Assembly: GCF_964204645.1 (NCBI RefSeq)
Contig: NC_134030.1
Span: 14,508,110-14,572,109, forward strand
From: Tubulanus polymorphus
Lineage: Eukaryota; Animalia; Nemertea
Length of the DNA stretch: 64,000 nucleotides
Reading direction: 5' to 3'
Each line of letters starts with the position of its first letter. Position 1 is the first letter of the stretch. Below are positions 1 through 27,960 of the stretch, piece by piece. The notes below the pieces were generated by a model. That model was not told the origin of the DNA, did not search any database, and saw only the letters and a program-made list of their open reading frames with translations. A program made the translations under genes and the position numbers.

Positions 1-1
1 T

Positions 2-1012
2 AGTTTTACAACTTTAAAAAAGAGATACAATATAAAATCTAAACCTTTTTATAAATTAGATGCACTTGATATTGAAGAAGATTTTGATTTAAAATTATTA
101 TCTAAAAGTGAATTTAAAAAGTTAGAAGAAATGAAAGAACTTAAACAATTACAAGAAGATATAGATGAAAATAGAAATAAAATTTGTAATGAATTAAAGC
201 AACAATTAGATATTGATAATGAATTATTTGAGACAGAATTTAAAAAACTTGAAATAATTCCTGAAGTAAAATTAAATGATTATACTCCTAAAATATCTGG
301 AATTGACAATAATACAATTTTTGAAATTAGAGGTTTTTCAACTCAATGTAAATGTATAACAGATCTTTATTTCAGTTATATTTTAACAGATCAAGGCTTT
401 TATGAAACTACTACTAATTTAAGAGAATTATTGATAAAAACATTACAATTAGACGTATTAAATAATAATTATTTTGAATTGTCTTCGATCGAAAAAATCA
501 TCGAAAAGTTAAAAATAGGCGTTCATAGCCCTGATAGACACTTTATTTTATCAAAATTAGAAAAACCTATTTTCCAAGTAAAGAAGATAACACACGATCA
601 TTTTGAAATAATTGATAAAATGGATTTTGAATTGATGAAAAAATATACTGAATATTTAAAGATAAATTCTAATGATTTCATAAATGTATGTGATATACGT
701 AAAGAATCTGATTATTTAAGAAAAATGAAACTTAACAATATGAAAATTAAGCAATGCGAGCGTTTAGAACTATTAAAAGATAATTCTGAATATAATATTG
801 ATTTCATTAATCCTAGATATTTTAGAAATAAATTGCGCCATCTAATTTTAATTCATAATGATGAAAATATTTACATATCAAATGAATTTTTCGATAAAGA
901 AATGATCAAGAATAATATAACAGAATATCAGGTGATAAAATTGATTACGCACAAGCAAAAATATAATTCTCAGCGGCATAAAGAATTAGTAGTAAGTTTA
1001 ATTGTTATTTGA
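2..1012 (+). CDS. 3' part of the mirror copy of the 758-aa Rep-like ORF (5' part outside the window)
   Basis: Translation identical to the C-terminus of 3099-5375; frame open from the window edge. Confidence 0.9.
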   Translation, partial: SFTTLKKRYNIKSKPFYKLDALDIEEDFDLKLLSKSEFKKLEEMKELKQLQEDIDENRNKICNELKQQLDIDNELFETEFKKLEIIPEVKLNDYTPKISGIDNNTIFEIRGFSTQCKCITDLYFSYILTDQGFYETTTNLRELLIKTLQLDVLNNNYFELSSIEKIIEKLKIGVHSPDRHFILSKLEKPIFQVKKITHDHFEIIDKMDFELMKKYTEYLKINSNDFINVCDIRKESDYLRKMKLNNMKIKQCERLELLKDNSEYNIDFINPRYFRNKLRHLILIHNDENIYISNEFFDKEMIKNNITEYQVIKLITHKQKYNSQRHKELVVSLIVI

Positions 1013-1069
1013 ATTGAAACATATAAATATTTAACATTTTATAAACTGTTTAATTTTTCTCTTAAATAA

Positions 1070-1267
1070 ATGGATGGTTTCATCCCAACTGGGAAAAGTG
1101 ATTTGAAACATTATCTTGTAGCAGGAGGATTAATATTGGCTGCGCTTTATTTATACTATGAGAATATTAGTAAGGATTTGATGAATGAAAATATAAAATT
1201 GAGCAAGAAATTGAAAAAATTAAATGGAAATAAAAATAATCATAAAAAAGTTATTGAATCAGATTAG
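1070..1267 (+). CDS. 65-aa small protein with a single predicted transmembrane helix
   Basis: Hydrophobic stretch YLVAGGLILAALYLYY; start context T5-N8-TAAATG like the Polinton structural genes. Confidence 0.65.
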   Translation: MDGFIPTGKSDLKHYLVAGGLILAALYLYYENISKDLMNENIKLSKKLKKLNGNKNNHKKVIESD

Positions 1268-1287
1268 TGAATTAATTAAATAAATAA

Positions 1288-1590
1288 ATGAGTGAAAATA
1301 TATTAAACTTATTACATCTAATATATAAAAATCAACAGAATATTAAATCAATTATTATGCTTACAGGTTTATTTTCATTCTCAGTTTATACTATAAAACA
1401 GTTGTTAGAATTCTATGATTGCTGTAAAATTAGATACACTGAATTAATAGAAAATATGAATTATATTTCAGATAGATTGAATAATATTAAGTGTTGTGAA
1501 ATTTGTAATAAAAGATATAAAAATAAAAAGAGTTTGAGAAATCATAAATATATTCATGAATTAGATGAAAAATTATATGAATCAAAATAA
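1288..1590 (+). CDS. 100-aa protein with a hydrophobic segment and a C-terminal C2H2 zinc finger
   Basis: CEIC...LRNHKYIH; TAAATAAATG start. Confidence 0.7.
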   Translation: MSENILNLLHLIYKNQQNIKSIIMLTGLFSFSVYTIKQLLEFYDCCKIRYTELIENMNYISDRLNNIKCCEICNKRYKNKKSLRNHKYIHELDEKLYESK

Positions 1591-1670
1591 GAAATCGACT
1601 GTTAAATTAGCTGAAAATATAAAATATATTAGTTGAAATGTATGAAAAAAAGGGGGTTGAGGTATCAATA

Positions 1671-1745
1671 TATTAGATACCCTATTAGATACCCTAATAC
1701 CATGTATTAGATACCCTATTAGATACCCTAATACCATGTATTAAA
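1671..1745. repeat. TATTAGATACCC short tandem repeats (mirror copy ~2366-2440)
   Basis: Four copies of TATTAGATACCC next to an A8-G5 run; the same motif recurs at 45027-45090. Confidence 0.85.
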
Positions 1746-2520
1746 TACGTATTAATGGTATTGAATACATATTATGCTTTATTTCTGAAAATGAAGTAAC
1801 AGAAGTAATTTATGTTTTAATTCATTCGAGTATGATATTATAAATTCTTTACACTTGACTAGGATAATACAAGAGTGATATTAGTTAGTTGGCTTATTCA
1901 GTAAGAGAAACAATGAAATAATACTAGAGTGATACTAACAGTTAAAGTTATTGAATTTCTTGTTAAATATATTTGAATTCTAGTCAATTCTTGTTAACCA
2001 ATAGCGCGAATAGAAATTAAAAAGATTTAAATAAAAAAAACAATAAGTTACTTTATCTAGTAACTTATTGTTTTTTTTATTTAAATCTTTTTAATTTCTA
2101 TTCGCGCTATTGGTTAACAAGAATTGACTAGAATTCAAATATATTTAACAAGAAATTCAATAACTTTAACTGTTAGTATCACTCTAGTATTATTTCATTG
2201 TTTCTCTTACTGAATAAGCCAACTAACTAATATCACTCTTGTATTATCCTAGTCAAGTGTAAAGAATTTATAATATCATACTCGAATGAATTAAAACATA
2301 AATTACTTCTGTTACTTCATTTTCAGAAATAAAGCATAATATGTATTCAATACCATTAATACGTATTTAATACATGGTATTAGGGTATCTAATAGGGTAT
2401 CTAATACATGGTATTAGGGTATCTAATAGGGTATCTAATATATTGATACCTCAACCCCCTTTTTTTCATACATTTCAACTAATATATTTTATATTTTCAG
2501 CTAATTTAACAGTCGATTTC

Positions 2521-2823
2521 TTATTTTGATTCATATAATTTTTCATCTAATTCATGAATATATTTATGATTTCTCAAACTCTTTTTATTTTTATATCTTT
2601 TATTACAAATTTCACAACACTTAATATTATTCAATCTATCTGAAATATAATTCATATTTTCTATTAATTCAGTGTATCTAATTTTACAGCAATCATAGAA
2701 TTCTAACAACTGTTTTATAGTATAAACTGAGAATGAAAATAAACCTGTAAGCATAATAATTGATTTAATATTCTGTTGATTTTTATATATTAGATGTAAT
2801 AAGTTTAATATATTTTCACTCAT
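2521..2823 (-). CDS. Mirror copy of the 100-aa C2H2 zinc-finger protein
   Basis: Identical translation to 1288-1590. Confidence 0.7.
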   Translation of the reverse strand: MSENILNLLHLIYKNQQNIKSIIMLTGLFSFSVYTIKQLLEFYDCCKIRYTELIENMNYISDRLNNIKCCEICNKRYKNKKSLRNHKYIHELDEKLYESK

Positions 2824-2843
2824 TTATTTATTTAATTAATTCA

Positions 2844-3041
2844 CTAATCTGATTCAATAACTTTTTTATGATTATTTTTATTTCCATTTAATTTTTTCAA
2901 TTTCTTGCTCAATTTTATATTTTCATTCATCAAATCCTTACTAATATTCTCATAGTATAAATAAAGCGCAGCCAATATTAATCCTCCTGCTACAAGATAA
3001 TGTTTCAAATCACTTTTCCCAGTTGGGATGAAACCATCCAT
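2844..3041 (-). CDS. Mirror copy of the 65-aa membrane protein
   Basis: Identical translation to 1070-1267. Confidence 0.65.
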   Translation of the reverse strand: MDGFIPTGKSDLKHYLVAGGLILAALYLYYENISKDLMNENIKLSKKLKKLNGNKNNHKKVIESD

Positions 3042-3098
3042 TTATTTAAGAGAAAAATTAAACAGTTTATAAAATGTTAAATATTTATATGTTTCAAT

Positions 3099-5375
3099 TC
3101 AAATAACAATTAAACTTACTACTAATTCTTTATGCCGCTGAGAATTATATTTTTGCTTGTGCGTAATCAATTTTATCACCTGATATTCTGTTATATTATT
3201 CTTGATCATTTCTTTATCGAAAAATTCATTTGATATGTAAATATTTTCATCATTATGAATTAAAATTAGATGGCGCAATTTATTTCTAAAATATCTAGGA
3301 TTAATGAAATCAATATTATATTCAGAATTATCTTTTAATAGTTCTAAACGCTCGCATTGCTTAATTTTCATATTGTTAAGTTTCATTTTTCTTAAATAAT
3401 CAGATTCTTTACGTATATCACATACATTTATGAAATCATTAGAATTTATCTTTAAATATTCAGTATATTTTTTCATCAATTCAAAATCCATTTTATCAAT
3501 TATTTCAAAATGATCGTGTGTTATCTTCTTTACTTGGAAAATAGGTTTTTCTAATTTTGATAAAATAAAGTGTCTATCAGGGCTATGAACGCCTATTTTT
3601 AACTTTTCGATGATTTTTTCGATCGAAGACAATTCAAAATAATTATTATTTAATACGTCTAATTGTAATGTTTTTATCAATAATTCTCTTAAATTAGTAG
3701 TAGTTTCATAAAAGCCTTGATCTGTTAAAATATAACTGAAATAAAGATCTGTTATACATTTACATTGAGTTGAAAAACCTCTAATTTCAAAAATTGTATT
3801 ATTGTCAATTCCAGATATTTTAGGAGTATAATCATTTAATTTTACTTCAGGAATTATTTCAAGTTTTTTAAATTCTGTCTCAAATAATTCATTATCAATA
3901 TCTAATTGTTGCTTTAATTCATTACAAATTTTATTTCTATTTTCATCTATATCTTCTTGTAATTGTTTAAGTTCTTTCATTTCTTCTAACTTTTTAAATT
4001 CACTTTTAGATAATAATTTTAAATCAAAATCTTCTTCAATATCAAGTGCATCTAATTTATAAAAAGGTTTAGATTTTATATTGTATCTCTTTTTTAAAGT
4101 TGTAAAACTAATTCCTGTTTCACGTAATTTAAATCTAAATATAAATTTATTCAATACTGTAAACATTGAATTAGTTGAAGATATAACAGTTGCTCCTTCA
4201 GTTTTAATATATTTTTTTGCTTCAATAATGAATTCTGATTTATCATCATTTTGATTAATTGTTAGGTATAAACATGGGATATTCTTAATTGTAAACATTG
4301 ATAAAATAAGTAAAAAGGAGGACTCTTCAATATTTTTACTTATCCTAGATTTATATCCTATAAATTTCCTTGCTAATAAATCACCATAATAACAGAAATA
4401 AAAGCATTTTTCAATCAAATCATAAATACATACGGTCTGTTGAACCTCATCAAATAATGATTTAAGTTGTAAATATGTAGGTGAATAGTAAATATTTTCT
4501 TTTTTTAAGTATTGTTTTATTTTTCCCATCACTTTTAATCCTCTTTTAAATGAAATACTTGTTATTTCAATTCTAATCAATCCTGTTTCAATTGATTTTT
4601 CAAATGATTCTTTTAACCTCTCTTGATAGCAATTTATGTAACTCATTAAATTTGAACCGAAATTTATATTTACACCAGGAGATTTGAATTGACATGCTGT
4701 TTTATTATAGATCTTTATTTTATCATCCTTATGTAATGCTGAAACACAACTATTGGAAAATTCTTTTAGAATTTTATATTTTCTATTTTCGAACATTGAT
4801 TTTATTTCATCTGAATTAAATGATCCTTTAAAATCTTGTGTCACATCTACATCTAATATATTGTAATTTTTTTCATTTAATAATTTTTCAATATTATCCA
4901 TTTTCTGTATTAATTCATTTAAATTTTGATTGCATAATGAAATTTTAAATACAGCAATATAATCTGTTAATTTTAATTCTTGATTAATTCTACTTAATAT
5001 ATATGATTTTGAATTATCATCATGAATTGTTAAAACACGTGTAATTTTTATAGCTAAGTTATCCAATATAATATCTCCTTGATTAAAACATTCTTTAATT
5101 TCATAATGTGTTATCTTTCTCTGATTAATGTTTAGAAAAGTTGTTCTATTTTCTTTTATAATTTCTTTTTCTAACATGATTTTATATAGCATTATATTAT
5201 CGCAAAATATATCTGATGTTTCAATTAATTCATTATTTTCAGATTTATAATACTCATTTATATTTACTCCTGAAATATCTGCTAAATTATTGTTAACAGT
5301 TAAATAATATAATATTGAATTTATATATTTATTACTCATGTCTTTCGCGGGAACTTTAATTAATCTTGTGCACAT
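3099..5375 (-). CDS. 758-aa intact protein; putative Rep_trans-like (RepC/MOB_T-type) tyrosine nickase / replication initiator
   Basis: Uninterrupted 758 codons in very AT-rich DNA; motifs D175-V-D177-V-T-Q-D181-F, K-I-Y223-N-K and I-R268-I-E270-I in the order of RepC RLDLAFDF / RIYNK / WRVEIE. ORF is secure, function is inferred. Confidence 0.6.
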   Translation of the reverse strand: MCTRLIKVPAKDMSNKYINSILYYLTVNNNLADISGVNINEYYKSENNELIETSDIFCDNIMLYKIMLEKEIIKENRTTFLNINQRKITHYEIKECFNQGDIILDNLAIKITRVLTIHDDNSKSYILSRINQELKLTDYIAVFKISLCNQNLNELIQKMDNIEKLLNEKNYNILDVDVTQDFKGSFNSDEIKSMFENRKYKILKEFSNSCVSALHKDDKIKIYNKTACQFKSPGVNINFGSNLMSYINCYQERLKESFEKSIETGLIRIEITSISFKRGLKVMGKIKQYLKKENIYYSPTYLQLKSLFDEVQQTVCIYDLIEKCFYFCYYGDLLARKFIGYKSRISKNIEESSFLLILSMFTIKNIPCLYLTINQNDDKSEFIIEAKKYIKTEGATVISSTNSMFTVLNKFIFRFKLRETGISFTTLKKRYNIKSKPFYKLDALDIEEDFDLKLLSKSEFKKLEEMKELKQLQEDIDENRNKICNELKQQLDIDNELFETEFKKLEIIPEVKLNDYTPKISGIDNNTIFEIRGFSTQCKCITDLYFSYILTDQGFYETTTNLRELLIKTLQLDVLNNNYFELSSIEKIIEKLKIGVHSPDRHFILSKLEKPIFQVKKITHDHFEIIDKMDFELMKKYTEYLKINSNDFINVCDIRKESDYLRKMKLNNMKIKQCERLELLKDNSEYNIDFINPRYFRNKLRHLILIHNDENIYISNEFFDKEMIKNNITEYQVIKLITHKQKYNSQRHKELVVSLIVI

Positions 5376-6210
5376 TTATATATCAAATTTTTATTAAAAT
5401 AGGTTAAAATTCAAAAAGAGTTAGAGTTCGCTGAAACCTTACGCTTTAAAATATTTTTTTTTCCCTTATTGGTAATGCTGAAACACAACTATTGGAAAAT
5501 TCTTTTAGAATTTTATATTTTCTATTTTCGAACATTGATTTTATTTCATCTGAATTAAATGATCCTTTAAAATCTTGTGTCACATCTACATCTAATATAT
5601 TGTAATTTTTTTCATTTAATAATTTTTCAATATTATCCATTTTCTGTATTAATTCATTTAAATTTTGATTGCATAATGAAATTTTAAATACAGCAATATA
5701 ATCTGTTAATTTTAATTCTTGATTAATTCTACTTAATATATATGATTTTGAATTATCATCATGAATTGTTAAAACACGTGTAATTTTTATAGCTAAGTTA
5801 TCCAATATAATATCTCCTTGATTAAAACATTCTTTAATTTCATAATGTGTTATCTTTCTCTGATTAATGTTTAGAAAAGTTGTTCTATTTTCTTTTATAA
5901 TTTCTTTTTCTAACATGATTTTATATAGCATTATATTATCGCAAAATATATCTGATGTTTCAATTAATTCATTATTTTCAGATTTATAATACTTATTTAT
6001 ATTTACTCCTGAAATATCTGCTAAATTATTGTTAACAGTTAAATAATATAATATTGAATTTATATATTTATTACTCATGTCTTTCGCGGGAACTTTAATT
6101 AATCTTGTGCACATTTATATATCAAATTTTTATTAAAATAGGTTAAAATTCAAAAAGAGTTAGAGTTCGCTGAAACCTTACGCTTTAAAATATTTTTTTA
6201 CCCTTATTGG
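4733..6210. repeat. 739-bp tandem duplication of the promoter and 5' part of the Rep-like gene
   Basis: 4733-5471 repeats as 5472-6210; ORF starts 5375 and 6114 are 739 bp apart; near identical (one E/K change). Confidence 0.92.
5446..6114 (-). pseudogene. 3'-truncated duplicate of the Rep-like ORF (aa 1-214), ending before KIYNK
   Basis: Matches 3099-5375 up to ...CVSAL, then an unrelated 8-aa tail. Confidence 0.85.
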
Positions 6211-6388
6211 GATCATTATTCCATAATTCAACAAATTTCTTTCCTTTTGTTAACTGTTCTGAATATAACTGTAAATATTCTAGTTTCAATTTATTCTCTA
6301 AATGTGTTATAGTTTTATTGTGTCTTGCTTTTTGAGACTTATCTATATCGATATTACATGTTGGGCAGTAGTATTTATTTGCTTCCAT
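6185..6388 (-). CDS. Chimeric small ORF: pPolB N-terminal zinc finger plus HNH-gene C-terminal tail (Polinton right-end ORF)
   Basis: MEANKYYCPTC...KLKLEY matches the pPolB start; LQLYSEQLTK...WNNDPN matches the HNH tail; same chimera at 40482-40718. Confidence 0.6.
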   Translation of the reverse strand: MEANKYYCPTCNIDIDKSQKARHNKTITHLENKLKLEYLQLYSEQLTKGKKFVELWNNDPNKGKKIF

Positions 6389-6636
6389 TTCAATACTATA
6401 TTTTTTATTAAAATTGATTTTAGAAGTTCAAAGATTTAAATGTTATTCATATATATGTGAATAACATTTAAGAGTAATAGGGGTTTAGTTGTTTCAGGCT
6501 AAAGGTTGAACGGGCGGGTGAGTAAAAATGAAAAAACATAAAAATAATAACAATTTCTACTTGAATTAGGAGCAAAACTCATAAAAATGAAAAATAAATT
6601 CGAGCGTGTGAGAATTTATTTTTCATTTTCATGAGT
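6205..6636 (+). mobile_element. Polinton right-end/TIR fragment including the inner arm and apex of a terminal hairpin (6473-6636)
   Basis: Collinear with 40540-40830; AGTAATAGGGG at 6473. Confidence 0.85.
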
Positions 6637-7499
6637 CTTCTATTAGATTTGACTACTAACAACTTTGAAACGAAATGTTAAACTCTGATAATAATATAAC
6701 AGTCTCTTTCTGCGCGTAGTTTCTATGGATGTACTGTGCTTCCTATTTTAAACTGGAAGTTACTCAAAGATAGCACCGGTGGAAATAGCAATCATCAATC
6801 ATGGCGCGCATACTGGCGCGAATCTGAAAGTTTGTGACGTCATTTCATAAATAAATAAAGAAGGAAGGCTACGAGAATATCCAAATCACAGGTTACTGTG
6901 AATAACTGGGATTCGACCATTCACAAGTTAAAAATGTACTTCCTTGTTTGTGAAGTAAGTTTATTCATACTGTTATTAAAAGCAGTTCCTTTTAAACATT
7001 CTATAATAGTATAATTTTGTTCGTGGATATCAATACTTCGAAAAATCAACAGCGCTTTATTTATTTATTGTACCGGTTCGCGTTTTCTTAATTGAATTGA
7101 ATTGGTCCGGTCCAAAAGGCGGGTCATACTAGTTAGCGTCAGAAAATGTCAGCGTCGGTGATACCTTGTTATCGTCGATATTAAACGGTTTAAAGTCAGT
7201 TTATACATCACATACATTACAAATTGGAGGTTCCTTGTACATGTACATCACATCGTGACGCAGCGGCGATGGTAATGTCATAGAAGAACAAAGTCAGTTG
7301 AAAGTACCTACCCACTGCACCGATAAAGAATGATTGCTAGCCAGAGACCAGTGCCAGTCAGTAATGGGGAGTGATGGTACCGTTCGTGATTATGTTTTTA
7401 TAATGGTTATTGGACGTCAATTTCATATGTGAATTGTAGTCCCCATCTGATCGCTTGACTTGTCACTCCTCTACTAATAGTAACACTAATAGTAACACT

Positions 7500-7790
7500 T
7501 TAAGTGCACTTTATTGGGTAAAGTACACTCGGAGTGCACTCATTGAGTGCACTTTTGTAAAATTAGTGCACTTTATGATAAGGAAAGTGCACTTTTGAAA
7601 AAAGTGTACTCGATAAGTGTACTCATTGAGTGCACTTTTGTAAAATTAGTGCACTTTATCACAAGGAAAGTGCACTTCACAAAAGAAGTGTACTCAATGA
7701 GTGTACTCATTGAGTCTTTTTTCGTAAAACTAGTGCACCTTACAGGAAAAGTGTACTTTACTGGTAAATGGACTGAAAGTGCACTTATTC
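7500..7790. repeat. ~83-bp tandem repeat (3 units) built from palindromic AGTGCACT/AGTGTACT words
   Basis: AGTGYACTCATTGAGT recurs at ~7533, ~7616 and ~7699. Confidence 0.8.
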
Positions 7791-8361
7791 ATTTCCGTAT
7801 TGAACTCAAATCGACTCCAAGAGCATTCTGTCACATGTGTACTCAGCTAGGTCATTAAAGCGAAAATATGATTAAAAATTAGACAATCAAAAATAAGACA
7901 ACAAATTTCATATATCAAACCATAACTTTATTTCTTTATTGAACTTTCAATAAAAAACCACACAATCATATACATTCCTATTTTCTAATTTCAACATTAA
8001 TATTTTCGATTGAAAACAACATATGAATCAAGCAATCAAGACATACAGTTTCTTACAAAGGATTAGACTAAATCAAGCCTAATTACATTCACTATGCGTG
8101 TACATTTATTTAACTTGAAAATGAAAATGATTACACTCTAAAAGTCAATAATGACAAATTACAAATCATGTTCCAGTTCAACTGGTACCACGTAAATAGC
8201 AGCACTGAACATACACATTTTAAAAAAGGAATAAATCACCTTCTACCACTCTAAATTAATCCACTTTATGTCAGTGGATATACACCTGAACTTATAGAAA
8301 TGCAGTGTGTAATTAAGTCAAACAAGAATTACCACCATGGCTCAAAAAAATTATTTGCCCG

Positions 8362-8466
8362 GCCAGTAGCTTGCATAAAAGTTGGTTAGAGTTAACTAAT
8401 GAATAGTTGAGATGGTGCCAAATAAGTTCCCGTCAGTTATCTTTAATCAACTTTTGAGCTACTGGC
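8362..8466. mobile_element. Short MITE-like inverted repeat
   Basis: GCCAGTAGCT..AAAAGTTG..TAACT / AGTTA..CAACTTTT..AGCTACTGGC. Confidence 0.45.
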
Positions 8467-8996
8467 GGCCCCCGGAGCTGGAGCTGTCCATACAACAACA
8501 GCCTTGTTGGGGAACTAGCACTCAGTCGAGTGGTACATCTAACATGTAAAAATAAGGCAAACTTTTAGATGTATCCCGGAATGAGAATGGTTATCTAAAT
8601 TTTAAATCATTTTTATATACATAAGTAAAGTTAGAACTTGGGGTCAGACAGGTTGAAGACATGACAACTGACAAACTGGACACTGACTTGAACTAATTAC
8701 TGTGACAACTTATTGAATAGTCTGACAATTGGATTAGGATATCTATATCACATCTAGTAAATTATAGCATAGGCCTATAAAGCATATCATCCATTAAGAA
8801 AATAAGTAAATGTTATGAATAGATGAATATTTCAATATCAAATTGTAAATACATTATTTAATTCCTGTGACTTATGTATGTTGAATGTAAATGTTATGGC
8901 GATAAAGATTTAATTGATCAATTAAATCAATTAATCTTTATCAACATAACATTGATACATGAGTCGAGAAGATACACAATATCCGTGACAGATGAA

Positions 8997-9134
8997 TAAC
9001 GAGAGAAATCCCACAACAACATATCCAGTACGCCTGATAATGGCTAATAGCTTTTAGCCGAAACGTTCGAAAAATACCATCTTACTATAGAACTTTTAAT
9101 TTTTTGCTGATATATTGTGGGATTTCTCTCGTTA
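8997..9134 (+). mobile_element. Penelope-like remnant: 20-bp inverted repeats around a degenerate hammerhead motif
   Basis: TAACGAGAGAAATCCCACAA / TTGTGGGATTTCTCTCGTTA flank CTGATAA-tGGCTA..TAGCC-GAAACGTT. Confidence 0.5.
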
Positions 9135-9691
9135 ACATTGATACAATTAATGATATATCATTCATTGACCCTCGTATCGTGTTTTATTGTTGAAGTATAT
9201 ACATATATGACAAATGATTGTGGTGATCATTTATATTTGAAGGGTTTGCTGGGAAATTAAAGAGTTTCATTGATGGTATACAACCTTCTTTGGTGCCAGT
9301 AAAACCACCAATCAATCAATGTATAAACCAAATATCAAGACAATACATGGAAGCTTCTTCATAGTTCCCAAAATAACTTGATTCCGTACACAGATTGAAG
9401 GACGCAAAAGTGAACGCAATAGCCCGCTGGGACTAAAGTCCCAAGTAGGCTGAAAATAAGCCCGTCAATCACACTCAACATCATTTGGCAATGGGATGTA
9501 TGCATAATTAAATCTAGTTTCAAAAAACGAAGGAAGAAAGATACATTTTCTCCCAATTTGGTCTGGGGACACAGCTTTTAGCTGCCCTTCATCATTACCC
9601 ATGAGTATATAATTACCAATAGTGCCATAGTCAGCGTCTCGTTTTGAATACTTTTTAACATTTATGTGACTGCCTAAAAATAATGTAATTA

Positions 9692-9830
9692 GAGTGTGCG
9701 AGAATTATTTTTCATTTTTATGAGTTTCGCTACTAATTCAAATAGCAATTGTTATTATTTTCATATTTTTTCATTTTTTATGAGCTCGACATTTCGACCT
9801 TTGGTATGAAAGCCCATTACCCCTATTACT
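9692..9830 (+). mobile_element. Outer arm of a Polinton terminal hairpin (element end ...CCCTATTACT)
   Basis: GAGCTCGAC..CGACCTTTG..GAAAGCCCATTACCCCTATTACT as at 41157-41204; complementary to 6473-6600. Confidence 0.8.
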
Positions 9831-10381
9831 GACGGGAAAAGCACAAACGTCGTTCAGCGCGAGAAAAGACGTTTTCTCATCAAGTTTTCCCCGTATCGAA
9901 AAAATGAAAATGTCGATGCGCAAAAGCGCTCAAATCGACAGGAAAAGCACATTTCGACACATTTCGACCCAAAAACGTCGTTCAGCGCGAGAAAAGACGT
10001 TTTAAAAGACGTTTTCTCATCAAGTTTTCCCCGTATCGAAAAAATTGAAAATGTCGATGCGCAATAGCGCTCAAATCGACGGGAAAAGCACATTTCGACA
10101 CATTTCGACCCAAAAACGTCGTTCAGCGCGAGAAAAGACGTTTTCTCATCGAGTTTTCTCCGTATCGAAAAAATGAAATTGTCGATGCGCAAAAGCGCTC
10201 AAATCGACGGGAAAAGCACATTTCGACCCGAAAACGTCGTTCAGCTGGAGAAAAGACGTTTTCTCATCAAGTTTTCCCCGTATCGAAAAAATGAATTTGT
10301 CGATGCGCATAGGCGTTCAAATCGACGGGAAAAGCACATTTCGACCCGAAAACGTCGTTCAGCGCGAGAAAAGACGTTTTC
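9831..10381. repeat. Minisatellite, about 5 units of ~110-135 bp
   Basis: Recurrent GACGGGAAAAGCACATTTCGAC...AACGTCGTTCAGCGCGAGAAAAGACGTTTT. Confidence 0.9.
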
Positions 10382-10955
10382 AAGTTTAATATTGCTACAC
10401 GTAATATCTCAATTTTCTATAGTGCCAGATTATAAATAAACTATAATCTAACCATACTTTTTCAGAAAGCTGAAAAATATAGTCATAGACCTACTAAAAT
10501 CCTGAGATTTGCACTCATTTTTTGTTCATTCAACGAGAATATGACATGAGTGCGCCAAGTTTAAATACCAAACAGATGTTACAGTAAATTGGTACAATAC
10601 CACAGAACTATTACTTTTTCACTGAAACTTTCTTGCACATGTTGCCGTGTACATGTACCCACTAAATGCGGGATCAATGAACCTGCTTCCTAACTTACGT
10701 CAAACTCTTGATCTTGCTCTGCATAATTATCAAGATTTTGAAACTCTTCAATCACATAAAATATTTCGCTAACATCCGGCATCGCTCCCTACAGGTAAAA
10801 ATGTATGATAGTGTGAAAATGAAGGCGTAGGCGTAATGAACACCAGACATAATAACTTGAAATAACAAACAACTTTCAATAATGTTACACTGGCTGAAGG
10901 CAAATTGGAAATACAATAGTACGATAACCACACTCAGACGTGGTGAACACATAAA

Positions 10956-11115
10956 AAGATAAAAACCCACTATGTACAAATCGAAAGAATTTTAAAATTG
11001 AGAATTTACTTATTCAAACAAAATAATTTTATAAGACACGACGTTTCGATCTCACCCTAGAGATCATCATTCTCGATTTTAAAATTTTGATTTGTACATG
11101 GTGGGTTTTTATCTT
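10956..11115 (-). mobile_element. Penelope-like remnant with inverted arms and a hammerhead-like core (copy at 14474-14633)
   Basis: AAGATAAAAACCCAC.ATGTACAAATC / GATTTGTACAT.GTGGGTTTTTATCTT; minus strand TGATGA-TCTC..GAGA-TCGAAACGTCG. Confidence 0.5.
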
Positions 11116-11650
11116 ATTCAGGGATGAAAATCATAGGCGGATTTCCGACTTTTAGTTTCATTTCCATCATTCTTGAGAACAGTGTAAATCCGTTAAAAAA
11201 TTTAGGGGGGGGGGGTTAATAATTATCGAGTCACTAAGTTTTTCTGAGATCGGGAGATCACAGCGGCCGTAAAAGCGCTGCGAACGGTAAAAGCGTTCAT
11301 TACGTGTTTTCCCAATCTCCATTCAAGACATACAAATTGGATCAATAATTGTATCTATTTCAATCGTTGGCTCTACGTTAAAAGAAAGTAAACATTCTTG
11401 ATCGCTCAGTTTACCCTGTACGCGTTGGAATACGGAATAATCCGAACGCGGACGCAGTACCGGCCCGTGTTCCAGACGTGAGGCCGGGCCGGGTTTTAGA
11501 CTTGTGGCCGCGTATTTATGTCTTGATCAACTGGTTCTCTTAGAAAAGCAGCCCGAAATAGCAAAAAGCATTACGTTTCACCGGTATATGATGTTGAATG
11601 CAAAGTTTTGAAATCAAGCTTATAATTCAACTGTGAAGACCAAATGCTAC

Positions 11651-11803
11651 CTGTCCGAATGTTGGATGGTTTGTATGGTTCTCAGGTTCCGGGAACCGTA
11701 CATGGTATTCAACTAAACCCACAACATTATCAATGTTGTCTGATAAGTCTTTCTGAAGTTGAGATGATGCACGTCTCCTTGAAAGGGGAGAATCATCAGC
11801 AAT
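11651..11803 (-). CDS. Probable 153-bp exon, CaRF-like / Mutator-transposase-related segment (copy at 15170-15322)
   Basis: ttttgttccag acceptor and GT donor bound 51 codons ending YHVRFPEPENHTNH, resembling the Y-V-x-x-P-x4-H-x2-H pattern of CaRF. Confidence 0.4.
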
Positions 11804-11876
11804 CTGGAACAAAATTAGATAGGCCTTTAATCTGTGCTTAGAAACACACTTCTTATGAAGACTCGTGGTAAATATT

Positions 11877-13018
11877 AGTAATAGGGATAATAGGCTTTCA
11901 GATCAAAGGTCGAAGGGTCGAGCTCGTAAAAAAATTGAAAATAACAATAATTTACAGTTGAATTAGTCGCGCACACTCCTAATTCAACTGTAAATTATTG
12001 TTATTTTCATTTTTTACTCACTCGCCCCTTCAACCTTTAACCTGAAAGCCTATTATCCCTATTACTCTTAAAATAATCATGTAAATGAATAACATTTAAA
12101 TTGACAGATTATTCAATATAAAAGTGTAAGCTCTTATAGAATAGATATATAGATATATTTACAACATTATTTCAATATTCATATTTGTGTGAGTTAGATT
12201 TTTAAACATTAAAAGTGTTAGTAAAGTGTGATTGAAATAACACGTAGCTGTATATACTAGAACATGATTCTATTTGAGCCTATATACATTTCATGTAATG
12301 AACTATTGAATAAATCTATAAATTCACAGCTGTTACAGCTGTTACTATGACGCCGAGTCATATGAGTCATAATATTGCAAACGTGTAGAGAACATTCTAG
12401 AAAGGTGTGCCGGAACCAGATGACGTACTGTTTTTTGTAGTTATTAGGGCTATTAAATATGAAACCTTTAGATATATTTAAGTGTATTTAGTATATCTTT
12501 TAGATGGCTAGAGTTGCCGCTAATATCTTTTAGATTAATAAAACGCCATACGCATCAAGAAGTGATAGAGAAACTCAAGATACTCTTTCTGACTGAGGAA
12601 TCAACAGCAATGGATATCGAACCAATGGAAATTAGCACAAGAAACACAAGAATCGACGAATCGCCAAAAGATCGACGAAGAAACTATATAAGAATTTCAA
12701 AAACATTAAGACTCCAATGATTAAGTTTAACATTAGTTGATGTAGTTAAATATTTACCAGCAATTGAAAAAATGCTTGTAATTATAAATTGTATTTATAG
12801 AAATTAAATGATGTATTGGAAGAAACGACTGAACAACTTGTATAATGTATTGTGTAAATCTGTTTGGTGAATTTTTATGTTCAGTCGTTTCTATTATGAA
12901 TAGCGCATGCGCATTGATCCAAACCGGGCCTGAATGCCCGGCCGGTCTTGCCTAGTGCACATGCGTTTTGATATTTCATGTCGGTTGTTTCTATTTACAT
13001 AATGAATATAATATGTAA
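11877..13018 (-). mobile_element. Polinton right-end fragment (duplicated copy) with a 190-bp terminal hairpin at 11877-12066
   Basis: AGTAATAGGG...CCCTATTACT, then sequence reverse-complementary to parts of 38900-40510. Confidence 0.88.
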
Positions 13019-13789
13019 TAGATGAAATCTAAGTGACGGACGCTTCGTCACTGCAGCTTGATTTAATTTTTACGACTAAGATTAAGAAATCATAACGATT
13101 CGAAAACAACCTCGTTCACGGAGTGTAACAAAAACACTCAAAATAATGTCAGTGACTAAAGGAACACCGAGAAAATTAATTGTTGTCAATGAAACTGCCA
13201 AGAAACTCTTACTATAACTCTTAAAGTCTATCAATTTTTTTTCGATGTTGAAATTGTTCTGTAGATTTGGGCCCCGAGCATTAAATTATTGAAGAAAATA
13301 AATCAATTCTTATTGTAAAGCTTGGAAAAATGAAAACTAATGCCATATAGTTAAGTGTCGGGGAAAGAAAGATGAAACTTCAACTTTAAGGTTCGATTAA
13401 TTTCTGGTTATTAAAAATTTTGGCTTATATTTTGATCAGGAAAATTATGACGAACCTGTTCATTTCATCTGTAGATCTAATGAAATTCAATTTTCTATGA
13501 AAATAACTTGACCCATTTCTTAACTAAATATCAACTGCTCTTTGGCTACCCGGGGTAGGTCGGTTTACCACTGCTAAAAAGATTACTATTTAGATTTGTA
13601 TCAGGAATTTTTCAATGGTTTATAAACCACTTTGTAAAACCCGAAATGTAAAAACCGACATTATGGTGAAACTGAGACGGTTTGCGAGATTGAAGAATTT
13701 GACCTGGTGTTAATTTAGAGATTAGCTCCATTTGAAAAGTAAAGGAAGGGACGAAAAAATGAAAGACACGTTGAAACGCATCGATTGCA

Positions 13790-14070
<281 letters not shown>

Positions 14071-15395: not shown

Positions 15396-16537
15396 AGTAA
15401 TAGGGATAATAGGCTTTCAGATCAAAGGTCGAAGGGTCGAGCTCGTAAAAAAATTGAAAATAACAATAATTTACAGTTGAATTAGTCGCGCACACTCCTA
15501 ATTCAACTGTAAATTATTGTTATTTTCATTTTTTACTCACTCGCCCCTTCAACCTTTAACCTGAAAGCCTATTATCCCTATTACTCTTAAAATAATCATG
15601 TAAATGAATAACATTTAAATTGACAGATTATTCAATATAAAAGTGTAAGCTCTTATAGAATAGATATATAGATATATTTACAACATTATTTCAATATTCA
15701 TATTTGTGTGAGTTAGATTTTTAAACATTAAAAGTGTTAGTAAAGTGTGATTGAAATAACACGTAGCTGTATATACTAGAACATGATTCTATTTGAGCCT
15801 ATATACATTTCATGTAATGAACTATTGAATAAATCTATAAATTCACAGCTGTTACAGCTGTTACTATGACGCCGAGTCATATGAGTCATAATATTGCAAA
15901 CGTGTAGAGAACATTCTAGAAAGGTGTGCCGGAACCAGATGACGTACTGTTTTTTGTAGTTATTAGGGCTATTAAATATGAAACCTTTAGATATATTTAA
16001 GTGTATTTAGTATATCTTTTAGATGGCTAGAGTTGCCGCTAATATCTTTTAGATTAATAAAACGCCATACGCATCAAGAAGTGATAGAGAAACTCAAGAT
16101 ACTCTTTCTGACTGAGGAATCAACAGCAATGGATATCGAACCAATGGAAATTAGCACAAGAAACACAAGAATCGACGAATCGCCAAAAGATCGACGAAGA
16201 AACTATATAAGAATTTCAAAAACATTAAGACTCCAATGATTAAGTTTAACATTAGTTGATGTAGTTAAATATTTACCAGCAATTGAAAAAATGCTTGTAA
16301 TTATAAATTGTATTTATAGAAATTAAATGATGTATTGGAAGAAACGACTGAACAACTTGTATAATGTATTGTGTAAATCTGTTTGGTGAATTTTTATGTT
16401 CAGTCGTTTCTATTATGAATAGCGCATGCGCATTGATCCAAACCGGGCCTGAATGCCCGGCCGGTCTTGCCTAGTGCACATGCGTTTTGATATTTCATGT
16501 CGGTTGTTTCTATTTACATAATGAATATAATATGTAA
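15396..16537 (-). mobile_element. Right end of the older Polinton B with a 190-bp terminal hairpin at 15396-15585
   Basis: Same as 11877-13018; preceded by AATATT; continues at 23188 after an insertion. Confidence 0.85.
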
Positions 16538-17904: not shown

Positions 17905-20840
17905 CTAGTATAAATACATTTTATCTTTCCAGAATTTATCAAGACTTGATTTAAAACAGTCTGTGGAGGTGGCCGATACCACTTTTTCGGGGAGGATGTT
18001 CCACATGTTTACTACTCTTTGAGTAAAGAACATCCTTCTGACTTCTTTTTTCGACCTTAATTTCTTGAATTTCTTACAATGCCCTCTAAGTTGACGAAGG
18101 CTCACTTCAGGGGGTAACAGCTTTGAGGTGTTGACATTATAGTTAGTGCCCTCTTATATAATTATATGTCATAATCATATCGCCTCTGTCTCTACGGTAA
18201 GAGAGGGTCGGCAGTTTTAGGTGTCTCAGTCTGTCTTCATACGACATATCTCTAAGGCTTTGAACCAGCTTCGTAGCCCTCCGCTGTACCTTTTCGAGTG
18301 CCTCTGTGTCAATTTTTTACCCGGGGTCTCCATGCAGATATGCCGTACTCCAGTATTGGGCGTACTAAGGCCTTGTATAGTAGACAGAAAGTGCTAGGTT
18401 CCAAATAGGTGAAAGCTCTTTTTATTATCCCTAGCACCTTGTTCGATTTATTTACTACGGCATTTGTTTGGTCTTTGAAGCTTAGCTTATCATCTATTAG
18501 ACCCCCAAGGTCCCTTTCAATGCTACTTCCGGCGATTCTAACGGTTTTTCCTTCTGATATCATTGTGTACTCATACGGTCTGTCATTTTTGCCAAAATGC
18601 ATAACTATACATTTCTCTGGATGGAATTGCATTTGCCACTTTAATGCCCACTCACTTAGCATATTCAGATCATGTTGAAGGATGTTCCCATCATTATCAT
18701 CTCTAATTACCCTGAATATTTTTGTGTCGTCAGCATACATCTTCATTGTACTTTTGATGCCACTAGGTAGATCATTGATATATATCACAAACAGCAATGG
18801 GCCTAGAACGCTACCTTGAGGGACTCCACTGGTTACAGTTTAACATCCAGATAAATCACCGTCGATACAAACAGCCTGTTTTCTATTGGCTAGGAAGTCA
18901 CTGATCCAATCTAAAAGTTTTCCCCTTATTCCGTAATTTTCTACCTTCTTGAGCAGTCTTTTATGTGTGACCTTGTCAAAGGCTTTTTTAAAGTCGAGAA
19001 ATACCACATCAAATGTTTCGTTGTTGTCAAGATAAGTCGTCCAGTCATTTAGGGTTTCAGCCAGTTGTGTATTGGTCGATTTACCCTTAACAAATCCATG
19101 TTGATCAGGTGAAATTATATTATTATCAAGGAGATGTAACATCACCTTGTCCCTCACGATCGACTCCATTACTTTGCATACACAGCTGGTTAGACTCACT
19201 GGCCTGAAGTTTTCAGCCTTACTCGTAGTGCCTTTTTTATGTATCGGCTTCACGTGGGCCTCTTTCCAGTTCCCAGGTATCTTACCAGCTTTCAGGGTCT
19301 TATCAAATAGGTGGGCAAGACTTACCGAAAGCGTATCTGCTGCCTCATGTAAAATCCTGGGGTGTATTTGATCGGGACCCATTGCTTTGTTTATGGGAAG
19401 TGCTTTAAGCTTCTTTGCCACGGTTTCTGGAGTTATCTCTATACTGGTTATGGAGGTGATGCTCCTGAGCATGGCAGGAGGTTCTGGTATATATGTTATA
19501 TCCTCCTTTGTAAATACCCCGGCAAAGTAGGTGTTAAACACCTCGACTTTTTCGTGGTTGTTTGCTGTTTTCTTAGTTGTACCGTTGATACTATACTCTT
19601 GGTCCGGGAACTTACTTCTGGTGACTGTCTTCGATCTACAGTATTTCCAGAAGGCCTTAGGATTTTTCTTTGCTTCTTTTGCAATGTTCTTCTCAAATTG
19701 CTTCATCGCTTTTCTGGTTTCCCTACGTGCAGCGTTACTTGCTTGGGTATAGGTGTCATAATCTTCTTGTCTATGATGTCGGAGGTACTTGCTCCAGGCC
19801 TTGCGCTTTTTCCTTATTTTACTCATTGTGTTGCGGTTCATCCACAGTGGAGACCGTGTGTTTTTTTGCCCAGCATTTTTGCTTGATGGTACAAACATGT
19901 TTTCTGCTTCGATGATAGAGGATTTAATCTTTAACCAACATTGTTCTACATCAAGTTCCTCCAAGTCGTTCACTGGTAAATCCTGTGTCAATTTCTCACT
20001 TATCTTTACAAAGTCACCTCTGTTATAATTCTTCCTAGTGCATCTATCTATTTTCAGCTTTTTCGGAGTCGAATTTAGGTTGAATCTCAGGCAAAGATGG
20101 TCACTTTTTCGTAATGGCGGGAGATATTGGGTGTTTTCAACCTCGTCGGATGAAAAGGTAAATAACAGGTCCAGTATATTCTTCTGTTGGTTAACTCTAT
20201 GTCTAGTTGGCTGTAAGATGTTTTGTGTAAAAAAGGCATCTTGACAACTTTCTAAGAATTTTGAGGCTTCGTGGTTTACGGACCGTACTTCCATTGACAT
20301 GTTGTCCCAATTAATTTCCGGAAAATTGAAGTCCCCACAGAGGAGTTGGTACTCTCTCATATTTCCTAATCTCCTAATTGTATTGTGTAGCGCCTCATTG
20401 TTTTGATAATTGCTACTGGGACTTCTGTACATGCATCCCATTAACAGGGGCCTTTGATATTTGTCCATTTCTATTTCAACCCAGATGGCTTCCTAGAATC
20501 CCACTCCTTCCAGCAGTTTTGAGTTAGGCTCAGTAGATTTTAGACATTTTTCACGTAAAGACCAATGCCTCTAACTCCCGGGTTTTCTACATTTGAGTAT
20601 ATGTCATAGTTCTCACTACCTTCGAATATCATGTTGTTATCGCACGGTTGGAAGCGTGTCGATTTTGGATTGACTTCGGTGATGCACAGTAGGTCAGGTC
20701 TCTCCTTTTTTACTAATAGACTTAACTCCAACTTTTTGTTCATCAGGCAGTCTGCATTTGTATATATACATATAAGATAGTTCTCACCAATGGCTTCAGT
20801 CTCGTTGCTATTATTTTCATTTTCCTTTAATTCATTGGTA
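17905..20840 (-). pseudogene. LINE ORF2 (AP endonuclease + reverse transcriptase) with stops and frameshifts
   Basis: PDLLCITE, GDFN, SDH (APE); FRPVSLTS, QHGF, FLDFKKAFDKV, YADDT (RT), split over several ORFs. Confidence 0.95.
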
Positions 20841-20859
20841 GATTGCTCGATCTGTATAG

Positions 20860-22122
20860 GTTTAATCTGAGGTGCTTTTCTATTTTTTTGAGTCAGGCTT
20901 GTATTTTTTTTTAATTATTCCGAAAGGGCAGAGTGGGGGTAATTATTTTGTTACCTCTTATCATCAAACCCTTTTCCCCTTTGGCCTTCCTCTCTTCCAG
21001 CTCCTTCTTCAATATAGCATACATTCTTCTCTGTTCTATGGTTTTGTCACTAGACATGCTTATGCCATTTATACCTCTGGATTGTTTCTTTTTTGTTCAG
21101 CGTAACTGTTTACGATGACCTCTTTATCATATTCAGTTGCCAGAATTACTCTTAGTGGCCGCGTTTTTTCTGACTTGAAGGTCCCTATTCTGTTTATAAC
21201 CTTTGGTCTTTCGATATCTACCCTCAAGGTTCCTACGAAAAATTCCTGCACCTTTCGTTGTTCCTCTTTTCCTCTCTGGACATTTTCTTCAATTTTTTCT
21301 ACTTCCTTTTTATCAGCTTTATTATTGAGACTTAGCACGATTTCCTTCATTACTCTCTCATAGTTTACGAAAAATCCTTCCATTTTCTCAATAATCTTGC
21401 TCTCGACTTTTGCATTATCATTAACCCTCAGACATATCAATCCCTATTTGCTGTTTACATTCCTGACAGGTCAGCGTAAGGCAACTATTTTCAAGCAGCC
21501 ACTCTTCAATTCCCCGTAGTTCAGGCGGAATTTCTGCGCAGGCCCAGCACATATTATTTTTACAAGAGAAACATTTAAACTTGTTGACAGCTTGATTTCC
21601 CTGGATATCTAATTTGTCCCCACAGTAATTGCAAGTCTGTAGGGTTGATTTTGTTACTGGGTCAACATCAAGTCTCTGTCGTCGCGCCTCTTGCATATAG
21701 CTCACCTCCTCTATCCTTTGTTCATCCTCCCTTTTCCTCTTTTCCCTGTGTTTCAATGATCGGAACTGGGTGGACCCACGATTTGGTACCTCCGGAAGTA
21801 TTCGCTGTGGCGTTGAGACTGTAGGTCTACTAGGCTTACCTTGAATTGGTGACGGAATACTAATAGAGGCGTGTATACCCGCATAGGCTGCTGCCTGAGC
21901 TAGCAGATCCTGAGGCGGCGATTTAAGTCGCCGATTTCTGTATATCGGATAATTATTTTCATCCTCACTACTACTAGCCTCATCAGTCTCCCGATACCTT
22001 CTTCTTTCACTACTTACCCCCTGATCAGAATTTATATTTCGCCAACTACCCGGCCAATTATCATGCTGTATCACTTCCGGGTTTGGTGTTATTGTTTTGG
22101 TTGTTGTTGTTCCGCTCGCCAT
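20860..22122 (-). pseudogene. LINE ORF1 (PHD-like finger, coiled coil, RNA-binding region), frameshifted
   Basis: CNYC..CFSC..CWAC..CQEC; RIG...RPLRVIL. Confidence 0.8.
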
Positions 22123-23350
22123 TTTTCCGGACTGGTTGTCAAGGCTTGATGGTCGACGTTAAAAATTGATTTACGGAGCTATTGTATAATTATTATATTG
22201 ATCTTACCTCTTAATTTGTGCTATACACACTATTTGATTAGAATATTAACGATTCGTTGATTGTCTTATGATTAAAATTACGTTAAATTATCTTTATTGG
22301 GAGCTCTGTCTTCCCCTTGTAGGCCTCGATGCTACCTAGCAACATCCTCCTGCATAATTTTTTTCTGCCAGAAAAAAAATCGAATAAATCATAAGCAGTA
22401 AAATTCAAATGTCAATACAAAAATTGATTTCTCTCGCGAAAAATATTTATTTGTCTCTAATTCTCGGGGAATGTCGAGAACCGGGAATCTACGGCTCAAA
22501 ATTAATAGTGCACGTGGCCAGCGGTAGCGAATTCCTTATTTGGTGAAAGAAGGGGCGGAGACTAATGTTTTTGCCGACCGCGATGTCGCTGCTCCTCGGA
22601 GCGAGACCGTGCCGATCCATCCTCTCGGGCCGCCGCGCTGCCGTGAAATTTTAAGCAAATCGTACGGCAACGCGACTCATCGCAGTTTTAGGGTCATTAA
22701 ATTTGATAAATGATTACATATTTCAGCGCTGCGGCTGGGGTTGACTGTCGCACGCGCGCACGAGAGCGTAAATCTCCGGGATTCGAGCCTGCGATGGCAG
22801 TGAACCGGGCGCCGGCGCGCGGTTTGTTTCATGAATTCGCTCCCGTTGCTAAGGGGATTTCAGCTATTTTCAAACTCGTTCGATCAACGCGGTTCATTGT
22901 TAAACTATTCATCGACCCAATCTTGTTCGAAATTTCATGAAATAAATACATTCTGAAATAACCCGATTCATAAATTGCCGAATTTTAGTTAATGGCTGCC
23001 GGATTTTAGCGTGACGTAATTCTACTTCCGATTTCCCCATGAACTTCAAACCGGACGTCAAGTGACGTCATTTTTTTCTGACTTTGTCAGCTAGTCAGAA
23101 TCGGTTAAGAAGACACTTTCTAGAATCCACATATACGCGTTTATCAAAGGGACGTCCTCCGGGCGCCTTCGGCGCCCGTCGTCCGTCTATAATTATGATT
23201 AGCGCATGCGCATTGATCCAAACTGGGCCTGAATGCCCGGCCGGTCTTGCCTAGTGCACATGCGTTTTGATATCTTATGTGTTCAGTTGTTTCTATTTAC
23301 AGAATGAATATATAATTATGATTAAAACATGTGCATTAAGCAAAACCGGA

Positions 23351-23921
23351 AGTAATAGGGGTAATGGGCTTTCAGATCAAAGGTCGAACGGTCGAGCTCA
23401 TTAAAAAACAAAACATTAAAAGTAATTTAAAACTATAATATATTTTCATAACCGCGTATATTTTATATTAAAACTAAATATTTATTCTAAGATATCAATA
23501 ATTATTAAGCATATTGTATTAAATCAGCTCCGCGACCAATTGATTTATTTACAATACACAAATTCATATAATCAAATATATTTTAATAATAATAATTATT
23601 CTATTATTCAACTGAAATACACGCGGTTATGAAAATATATTATAGTTTTAAATTACTTTTAATGTTTTGTTTTTTAATGAACTCGACCATTCAACCTTTA
23701 ACCCGAAAGCCCATTACCCCTATTACTCTTAAAATAATCATATACATGAATAACATTTAAATCATTGAACTTCTAAAATCAATTTTAATAAAAAATTTAG
23801 TATTAAAATGGAAGCAAATAAGTACTACTGTCCAACATGTAATATCAATATAGATAAATCCCAAAAAGCAAGACACAATAAAACTAAAACACATTTAGAG
23901 AATAAATTGAAACTAGAATAT
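23351..23921 (+). repeat. Left TIR (571 bp); 23351-23727 is a self-complementary hairpin
   Basis: Reverse complement of 40605-41204; includes the first ~38 pPolB codons. Confidence 0.95.
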
Positions 23922-27652: not shown

Positions 27653-27960
27653 ATAGAATTAAAGATATCACAAATGTAAAATCTGTAGATTATAAATTCA
27701 AAAAGTTAACAGAATTAACAATCCATAAGAAATATCTAATTACAAATATTGATACAGTTACTAATAACTATGGAGATAAATTAGTTATACACTTAGAATA
27801 TGAAGGATTAAAAGAAAATACATATAAATTCAGAACATATTTACCGGATAGATTTCATAGATTATCAAGTGAAGATTTAGAAGAATTATGTTCTGGAGAT
27901 TTCTATTTCGTATACAAAGGTAAGAATGAAAAAGGGCACCATGAAATAGATTTCGAATGA
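27607..27960 (+). CDS. 117-aa conserved Polinton protein, possibly OB-fold ssDNA-binding
   Basis: Near identical to 50573-50926; KL.EL...Y.I...YG...YLP.RF pattern; fold is a guess. Confidence 0.6.
   Translation: MESKQANSENNKLFLDRIKDITNVKSVDYKFKKLTELTIHKKYLITNIDTVTNNYGDKLVIHLEYEGLKENTYKFRTYLPDRFHRLSSEDLEELCSGDFYFVYKGKNEKGHHEIDFE

Follow-up and report, generated by a model that had tools for sequence, protein, structure and literature searches.

What kind of mobile DNA carries a Rep-like replication gene against the end of a Polinton and then folds back on itself in a perfect mirror? The question is raised by a 64-kb window of the genome of the nemertean Tubulanus polymorphus (contig NC_134030.1, positions 14,508,110 to 14,572,109), the window being the whole stretch analysed, within which positions are counted from its first letter. 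An earlier note on this DNA had proposed a nickase cassette fused to a Polinton end, either a satellite of Polintons or a derivative independent of their polymerase, pPolB. The 758-amino-acid protein of the cassette is very probably a nickase of the Rep_trans type, judged by its predicted fold and conserved residues, and forms a separate family rather than belonging to PF02486. The region as a whole may be a small (~3.9 kb) satellite with hairpin ends that depends on Polintons and appears here as a head-to-head dimer, a reading about evenly poised between right and wrong.

A predicted nickase of the Rep_trans type

The full Rep gene lies on the minus strand (3099-5375). Its product is predicted to comprise a Rep_trans-like nickase domain (residues ~51-296), a long helix (457-502) and two probable OB folds (~515-630 and 668-758). 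The AlphaFold model (pLDDT 92.9, pTM 0.90) contains a TBP-like sheet, and the TBP-like crescent by which the Rep_trans/Phage_CRI superfamily is recognised appears to be present, the fold scores being middling to modest. Foldseek finds RepDE (4cwc) with a probability of 0.95-0.96 and E of 1-3e-3, ranked under low-probability HMG-CoA reductase rows, and TBP with a probability of 0.98-0.99. VIA places model residues 51-292 on RepDE residues 39-236 (Z 5.7-5.8, root mean square deviation 5.6-5.7, 162-168 residues); its end points set D59 beside D46 of RepDE, and R268 and E270 on R212 and E214. TBP is aligned over ~150 residues with Z 7.3-7.8; the crystallographers' own comparison of RepDE with TBP gave Z 5.4 (PMC4797284; sources cited by identifier are represented here by the available parts of their text). 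The C-terminal domains are predicted to be all-beta and Foldseek matches them to an RPA-related protein; we infer that they are OB folds. Of the 108 long family members, 79 have the last of these domains.

The open reading frame (ORF) belongs to an unnamed family with 132 relatives (full HMMER scan, 50%-identity representatives). Y223, K225 and G265 are invariant across 90 aligned sequences. Among the rows that cover each position, D59 is conserved in 83/84, D177 and D181 in 88/89 each, R268 in 88/90 and E270 in 85/89, and D59, D177, T179, D181, R268 and E270 are kept in 91-99%. Y223 sits on a predicted beta-strand (218-224) in a YxK context (IYNK). In RepD, D46, D142 and E214 are the metal ligands and Y191 the nucleophile, with R140, A144, D146 and R212 conserved (PMC13107129, PMC4797284, PMC5714925). 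These positions were confirmed in the pT181 RepC sequence. The order and spacing of the family residues match them, R140 excepted. The metal-ligand set D, D, E is present in the family (D59, D177, E270), in a register that agrees with the ends of the VIA range. The 758-residue protein contains neither an HUH nor a Walker A motif; the Walker A pattern occurs in 3 of 108 long members and no helicase of Pfam is matched. The earlier call of a nickase is backed, as a prediction, by fold and residue conservation.

Several results weigh against this assignment. The position of RepD R140, part of motif I (RxD), is occupied by Asp in 67/89 sequences, with Arg outside the four commonest residues. The family profile compared with RepC is not significant and scores below shuffled controls. 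The highest VIA score (Z 7.7-8.1) belongs to an unrelated protein, TBP ranks above RepDE, and no match stands clear of unrelated rows. Pfam gives nothing informative for Rep or its relatives and no Rep_trans match for the family, with PF02486 and PF05144 matched by 0/50 and 0/60 members; a PDB search by sequence returned no match. A non-catalytic DNA-binding or transcription factor of TBP fold would explain why TBP scores highest of the structural matches that cover the whole domain (Z 7.3-7.8) and why a viral library yields TBP-like and early-transcription-factor proteins. Such a protein is very improbable here, however: Asp, Asp, Glu, Tyr, Lys and Arg, nearly invariant and ordered as in Rep_trans, are the signature of an enzyme, and replication initiators are what phrog_702 and the Atlas neighbours (0.81, under 0.9 and thus leads only) represent. 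The phrog_702 'replication protein' profile is matched by 2 of 60 members, including the close relative P0003, with a best E of 1.6e-6.

The origin of 25 family proteins was looked up, and the named hosts among them are the mealybug Planococcus citri, with two family genes on one 84-Mb contig, and fungi of the genus Apophysomyces. For most of these proteins, the longest contig measures 1-9 kb. The Apophysomyces homologs P0087 and P0172, from two isolates, lie on contigs of 4207 and 4214 bp, near the size estimated for the element. No family match was obtained in phage genomes, none in IMG/VR with Rep alignments (0/5 scans), and none in JGI metagenomes with the close-clade alignment. IMG/VR likewise gave nothing for the Polinton terminus or for Polinton proteins (0/2). 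In GTDB, a single 3.6-kb contig of a metagenome bin is matched; it is probably a contaminant, because it is the sole match across 201 genomes of that class. A tree made by a quick method from 111 of 177 domain hits, after 18 cluster duplicates and short hits were dropped, groups the window protein in a clade of 9 proteins (Shimodaira-Hasegawa-like approximate likelihood ratio test, SH-aLRT, 100).

One divergent member in ciliate code (L018:730-4230) is an ORF of 1166 amino acids in which a RING-like finger precedes the nickase domain; a hairpin with 37-bp arms lies upstream. A GC-richer clade (L009, L012, L013, L015, L016) has a conserved ORF of ~90 amino acids just upstream of a compact Rep of ~560 amino acids, and L009 also carries a DDE_Tnp_4 transposase. 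In L011 (490-603) a zinc-finger stretch stands just upstream of Rep, as in the window, and shows weak similarity to the finger with which Polinton pPolB begins (E 0.003).

A cassette joined to a Polinton end

Along the minus strand, the gene and feature order of the earlier note is found in full: Polinton end, chimeric ORF, Rep copies, 65-amino-acid ORF, C2H2 ORF, repeats and palindrome apex. The Polinton end (6204-6548) shares 88% identity with the right end of the window's full Polinton (23351-41204). Its right-end chimeric zinc-finger ORF (67 amino acids, 6185-6388) leaves Polinton sequence after WNNDPN, and the terminal repeat (6389-6639) holds an inner hairpin arm from 6473 to ~6600 and the hairpin tip (6574-6639). 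Of the terminal hairpin named in the earlier note, 6574-6639 is the tip with the inner arm alone. An outer arm that belongs to this hairpin subtype and bears the true Polinton terminus is found at 9693-9830 (minus strand); it adjoins a 118-bp satellite, and unrelated DNA of 3 kb lies between it and the inner arm. That this outer arm belongs to the element is uncertain. A 40-bp repeat flanking the 3-kb spacer was considered as a target duplication and rejected (~84% identity by our count). The window holds one Polinton-type end of the cassette, split or partial; a second would lie to the left of the window.

The two Rep genes both derive from a single 739-bp tandem duplication (minus strand, 4733-6210; units 4733-5471 and 5472-6210; 736/739 identical). 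The upstream copy (5446-6114, 222 amino acids) consists of residues 1-214 of the full protein and 8 others; it ends before the predicted catalytic Tyr and lacks Y223, R268 and E270. Downstream of the full gene, likewise on the minus strand, the 65-amino-acid ORF (2844-3041) has a short hydrophobic stretch, a possible membrane anchor; the ORF stands, while its description as a transmembrane protein is marginal (best 19-residue hydropathy 1.32). It is followed by an ORF of 100 amino acids (2521-2823) with one C2H2 finger, as had been proposed, whose zf-C2H2 Pfam matches (E ~0.002) lie below cut-off, and by an array of the 12-bp repeat TATTAGATACCC (2363-2440). ORF and Pfam searches of 2059-6640 found no gene for pPolB, rve integrase, packaging ATPase or capsid, all of which are present in the neighbour at 23351-41204, and no polymerase or helicase gene in the element. 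Rfam gave no match in positions 1-14000.

A lasting tie to Polintons, already suspected in the earlier note, is supported by four lines of evidence: promoter specificity, a shared repeat, homology at the palindrome apex, and fusions with a Polinton ORF in relatives. Both start motifs that had been described were found, the T-run version being the weaker. The Rep start motif (5373-5398, with a second copy at 6112-6137, minus strand) has 6 matches in the window versus 0.07 expected, two belonging to the Rep copies and four to starts of Polinton genes, which come in two pairs; the pattern was fixed after the starts had been seen, and the shuffle used whole-window composition. Of the 118 ATGs in the cassette, the T-run motif precedes 3, among which is the start of the 65-amino-acid ORF. 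TAAATG starts all three cassette ORFs (3/3), and TAAATG or TAAAATG stands at 11/15 Polinton starts versus 62/736 ATGs overall. The Polinton genes themselves fall into two start-motif classes, A-rich (23809, 27607, 33935, 38731) and T-run (29357, 29802, 31643, 32662, 37759), both ending in TAAATG or similar, which suggests early and late programmes.

The 12-bp repeat occurs elsewhere in the window only between the convergent gene blocks of a second Polinton, A (45024-45086). Cassette and Polinton A are identical there at 34/34 bases, with similar C-run and T-run neighbours, and 5 matches are found versus 0 expected. The close relatives P0002 and P0008, from other samples, carry an extra domain like ORF 27607, which follows pPolB in both Polintons here. 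With borders set after the first matches, hhalign gives this domain 96% (E 1.4e-9) against the ORF 27607 family and 92.5% against the single ORF, versus at most 1.2% against 25 other ORFs of the window. The two C-terminal domains of the window protein itself match ORF 27607 weakly (hhalign 0.3% and 10%). Codon usage of the cassette correlates with that of the Polinton genes at r 0.85-0.92, versus 0.44 with a long interspersed nuclear element (LINE) in the window.

The border of the cassette bears on a different account, which takes the cassette for a rolling-circle transposon or mobile replication module in its own right, having a fixed 5' end, and supposes that it invaded a Polinton end a single time. 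Both duplication units open with an identical 10-mer, found at both junctions and nowhere else in the window; its first start is located at the junction of Polinton and cassette, and a 7-nt look-alike marks the internal break of the duplication. Distant homologs stand without Polinton genes, one of them beside a DDE transposase, two copies share one mealybug chromosome, and an end-module turnover model has been put forward for polinton-like viruses (PMC11296320). This account is fairly unlikely: the Polinton-like promoter, 3' repeat and apex are all internal to the cassette and would not be provided by a single insertion, and relatives contain a fused Polinton ORF.

Alternatively, the genes may be cargo of a full-length Polinton subfamily whose nickase processes the Polinton's own hairpins, the remainder being lost or left of the window and the palindrome a local fold-back. 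Every Polinton end in the window is a palindrome of 190-400 bp, the right-end ORF continues differently from the same point in other copies, and signals and codon usage are in common. Cargo is nevertheless quite unlikely, given that a Rep gene is missing from the one full Polinton of the window, which has a 6-bp target duplication, that the relatives' contigs are so short, and that the apex itself resembles a terminus. The stretch coding for WNNDPN continues differently in four places (40516-40616, 38082-38179, 42036-42131 and 6204-6286), which suggests that this site, at the inner edge of the terminal repeat, is a recombination hotspot.

The palindrome and a possible mode of copying

The proposed Polinton-dependent satellite is read as a dimer on account of the palindrome at the left of the window. 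Its arms of 2052 bp (1-2052 versus 2059-4110) are 100% complementary and enclose a loop of 6 nt (2053-2058). The mirror arm (1-2052, plus strand) holds the 3' part of Rep, both small ORFs and the repeats, and runs past the window edge. The apex falls in non-coding DNA, 462 bp beyond the last stop codon. The apex stem (2059-2082, plus strand) resembles the stem of the 190-bp Polinton terminal hairpins, and its first 5 bases are the first 5 of the Polinton terminus. A 23-mer one base from the loop matches the Polinton hairpins at 20/23 positions, the best of 3391 cassette 23-mers, so the apex looks like a shortened Polinton hairpin; taken as an 18-mer, the match is equalled by 11/3396 cassette positions. 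The Polinton hairpins themselves form two subtypes with a common terminal stem and unrelated cores.

Perfect identity of the arms and their extension to the window edge could also mean that the cassette is real and that sequencing, amplification or assembly produced the palindrome, perhaps with the 739-bp duplication, as a fold-back artefact; the hairpin-dimer model would then be left unsupported. A nearby 3.4-kb tandem duplication that is 99.9% identical fits such an origin. We consider an artefact improbable, since a random fold-back would not pick a non-coding site so far beyond the last stop that is the best of 3391 in its match to a hairpin stem.

Parvovirus head-to-head dimers are replication intermediates. 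For the cassette, hairpin-type ends, a predicted nickase, probable single-stranded DNA-binding domains and the lack of polymerase, helicase, integrase and capsid genes make rolling-hairpin copying with a helper the simplest fit. The satellite likely relies on a Polinton for polymerase, integrase and capsid. The anatomy of the locus is directly seen, while each catalytic and helper step of the cycle is proposed, as follows. Through the common start motif, the cassette genes would be switched on alongside the replication genes of the helper. Copying through the closed right-hand hairpin would then produce a head-to-head dimer at 2056. Rep may nick one strand near the hairpin by means of Y223, leaving a 3'-OH and resolving the dimer, with the OB folds holding the displaced strand. 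Synthesis could be carried out by the helper pPolB or by a host polymerase, and the Polinton integrase might insert the molecule through its Polinton-type end; packaging would also be supplied by the Polinton. The 739-bp duplication could represent an aborted round of copying, rejoined to the 5' border of the cassette.

The two options of the earlier note, satellite and pPolB-independent derivative, are inseparable from one copy and merge into a satellite built of Polinton parts. The qualification 'pPolB-independent' is unsupported, as the element encodes neither polymerase nor helicase.

A number of observations speak against the satellite. The cassette is seen in one copy in the window and its left hairpin is split or incomplete. 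Two further near-perfect duplications in the window make an assembly error possible, and AT richness alone may account for the likeness in codon usage. The four complete Polinton hairpins (23351, 41204, 46769, 11877) are, by our reading, without flip/flop inversion, the outer and inner arms keeping the same orientation at all four ends. Among homolog contigs, which come from metagenomes, measure 1.3-4.7 kb and all belong to clades other than that of the window, a Polinton core gene or end is found in 0/18, the sole match being the weak zinc finger in L011. A terminal fold-back occurs in just 1/19 (L008, which ends in a 30-bp fold-back after repeats). Repeat arrays lie close to the contig end in at least 5 of 19, and L019 is almost entirely one ORF. 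The earlier note had stated that homologs showing neither enrichment near Polintons nor shared termini would speak for a one-off rearrangement, and the 18 contigs show neither Polinton core genes nor shared termini. Because these contigs are short and all from other clades, their silence limits the Polinton link to the lineage of the window rather than refuting it.

Neighbouring elements and relation to known systems

The full-length Polinton of the window, B (23351-41204), is flanked by the 6-bp target duplication ACCGGA and contains pPolB-type, integrase, ATPase and capsid ORFs; its pPolB, capsid and integrase genes are in pieces and it has no Rep gene. Its ends are imperfect palindromes of 377-406 bp with the terminal motif at start and finish. 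B belongs to a nest of three Polintons (23190-54324), lying within A (flanks 23190-23348 and 41241-46768), whose capsid gene contains the truncated C (46769-54324). Polinton pieces D and C were considered as two ends of one Polinton and rejected; the 6-bp flank is the same and the sequence beyond differs. A Polinton end fragment with a 190-bp hairpin is found twice (11877-13018 and 15396-16537) in the 3.4-kb tandem duplication, which has (GTC)n borders and is either a recent duplication or a misassembly. Other features are a broken LINE (18309-22122) with endonuclease and reverse transcriptase and an upstream ORF with a PHD-like finger, an array of an 83-bp partly palindromic repeat (7502-7761), and the 118-bp satellite (9842-10383), in which a Polinton-type end is inserted.

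The Rep protein shares with Rep_trans (PF02486)/Phage_CRI (PF05144) enzymes, such as pT181 RepC/RepD, RepSTK1, the replication proteins of inoviruses and archaeal Rep-Arvir, the predicted TBP-like curved sheet, a Tyr on a beta-strand (IYNK), the order D...DxTxD...RxE with spacing near that of RepD, and the lack of HUH. It differs from them in that the family resides in eukaryotic DNA, does not keep R140, has ~24 more residues between Tyr and RxE, has no Pfam match, and carries C-terminal OB-like domains where those enzymes have a helical DNA-binding domain. The available text of a 2026 study regards Rep_trans as bacterial, and archaea are the only further group to which it extends the fold (PMC13107129). 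In the literature searched, which lacked most subscription journals, no eukaryotic Rep_trans family or Polinton nickase satellite was found, and the eukaryotic rolling-circle or rolling-hairpin elements found there all use HUH enzymes.

Transpovirons of Mimiviridae and pacmanvirus resemble the element as small, capsid-less DNA with a zinc-finger gene, a possible membrane protein (marginal here), an internal tandem repeat and helper promoters (PMC11788076). They differ in their size of ~7 kb, their helicase and their terminal inverted repeats. In the element the ends are of hairpin type, a nickase is predicted, a helicase motif is lacking and the helper is likely a Polinton. Adeno-associated virus (AAV) and other parvoviruses share a length of ~4-5 kb, palindromic ends and, as predicted for the element, a Rep nickase and dependence on a helper (PMC5714925). 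Parvoviral Rep, however, joins HUH to a superfamily 3 helicase, and the genome encodes a capsid, neither of which is seen in the element. With no helicase, no HUH motif and no capsid, the element falls outside both transpovirons and AAV.

A tyrosine nickase likewise mobilises Replitrons and Helitrons in eukaryotes, in Replitrons without a helicase; the Reps of both are of HUH type, and Replitrons contain no Polinton parts and have terminal direct repeats that are short (PMC10288648). The HUH motif and RRM-type fold of Replitron, Helitron and parvovirus Reps are not seen in the cassette protein, whose nickase domain is predicted to have the TBP-type sheet. Halocafeteria virophages and polinton-like viruses have palindromes at their integrated ends, with a proposed role in priming replication (10.64898/2026.07.28.741278); the words 'nick' and 'rolling' are absent from the main text of that preprint. 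In entomopoxvirus-associated polinton-like viruses, end modules turn over and replication genes invade termini (PMC11296320). The Halocafeteria viruses and polinton-like viruses differ from the element in encoding capsids and primase-helicase or pPolB.

The enzyme family is the firmer novelty, and the satellite lifestyle rests on one locus and two fused relatives. Tentatively, and with somewhat less than an even chance, the element is the first representative seen of a class of hairpin-ended eukaryotic replicons that rely on a non-HUH nickase of Rep_trans type and are spread across animals, fungi and protists. The lineage of the window would then parasitise Polintons as AAV does adenoviruses, the helper providing ends and promoters as well as polymerase, integrase and capsid. 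A eukaryotic family of over 130 divergent clusters would bring TBP-fold nickases to the third domain of life, whichever of the rival explanations holds at this locus. If true, the copying of Polinton promoters and ends by a satellite would be indirect evidence for an active extrachromosomal phase of animal Polintons, and it would offer a handle on the role of the long terminal palindromes in these Polintons.

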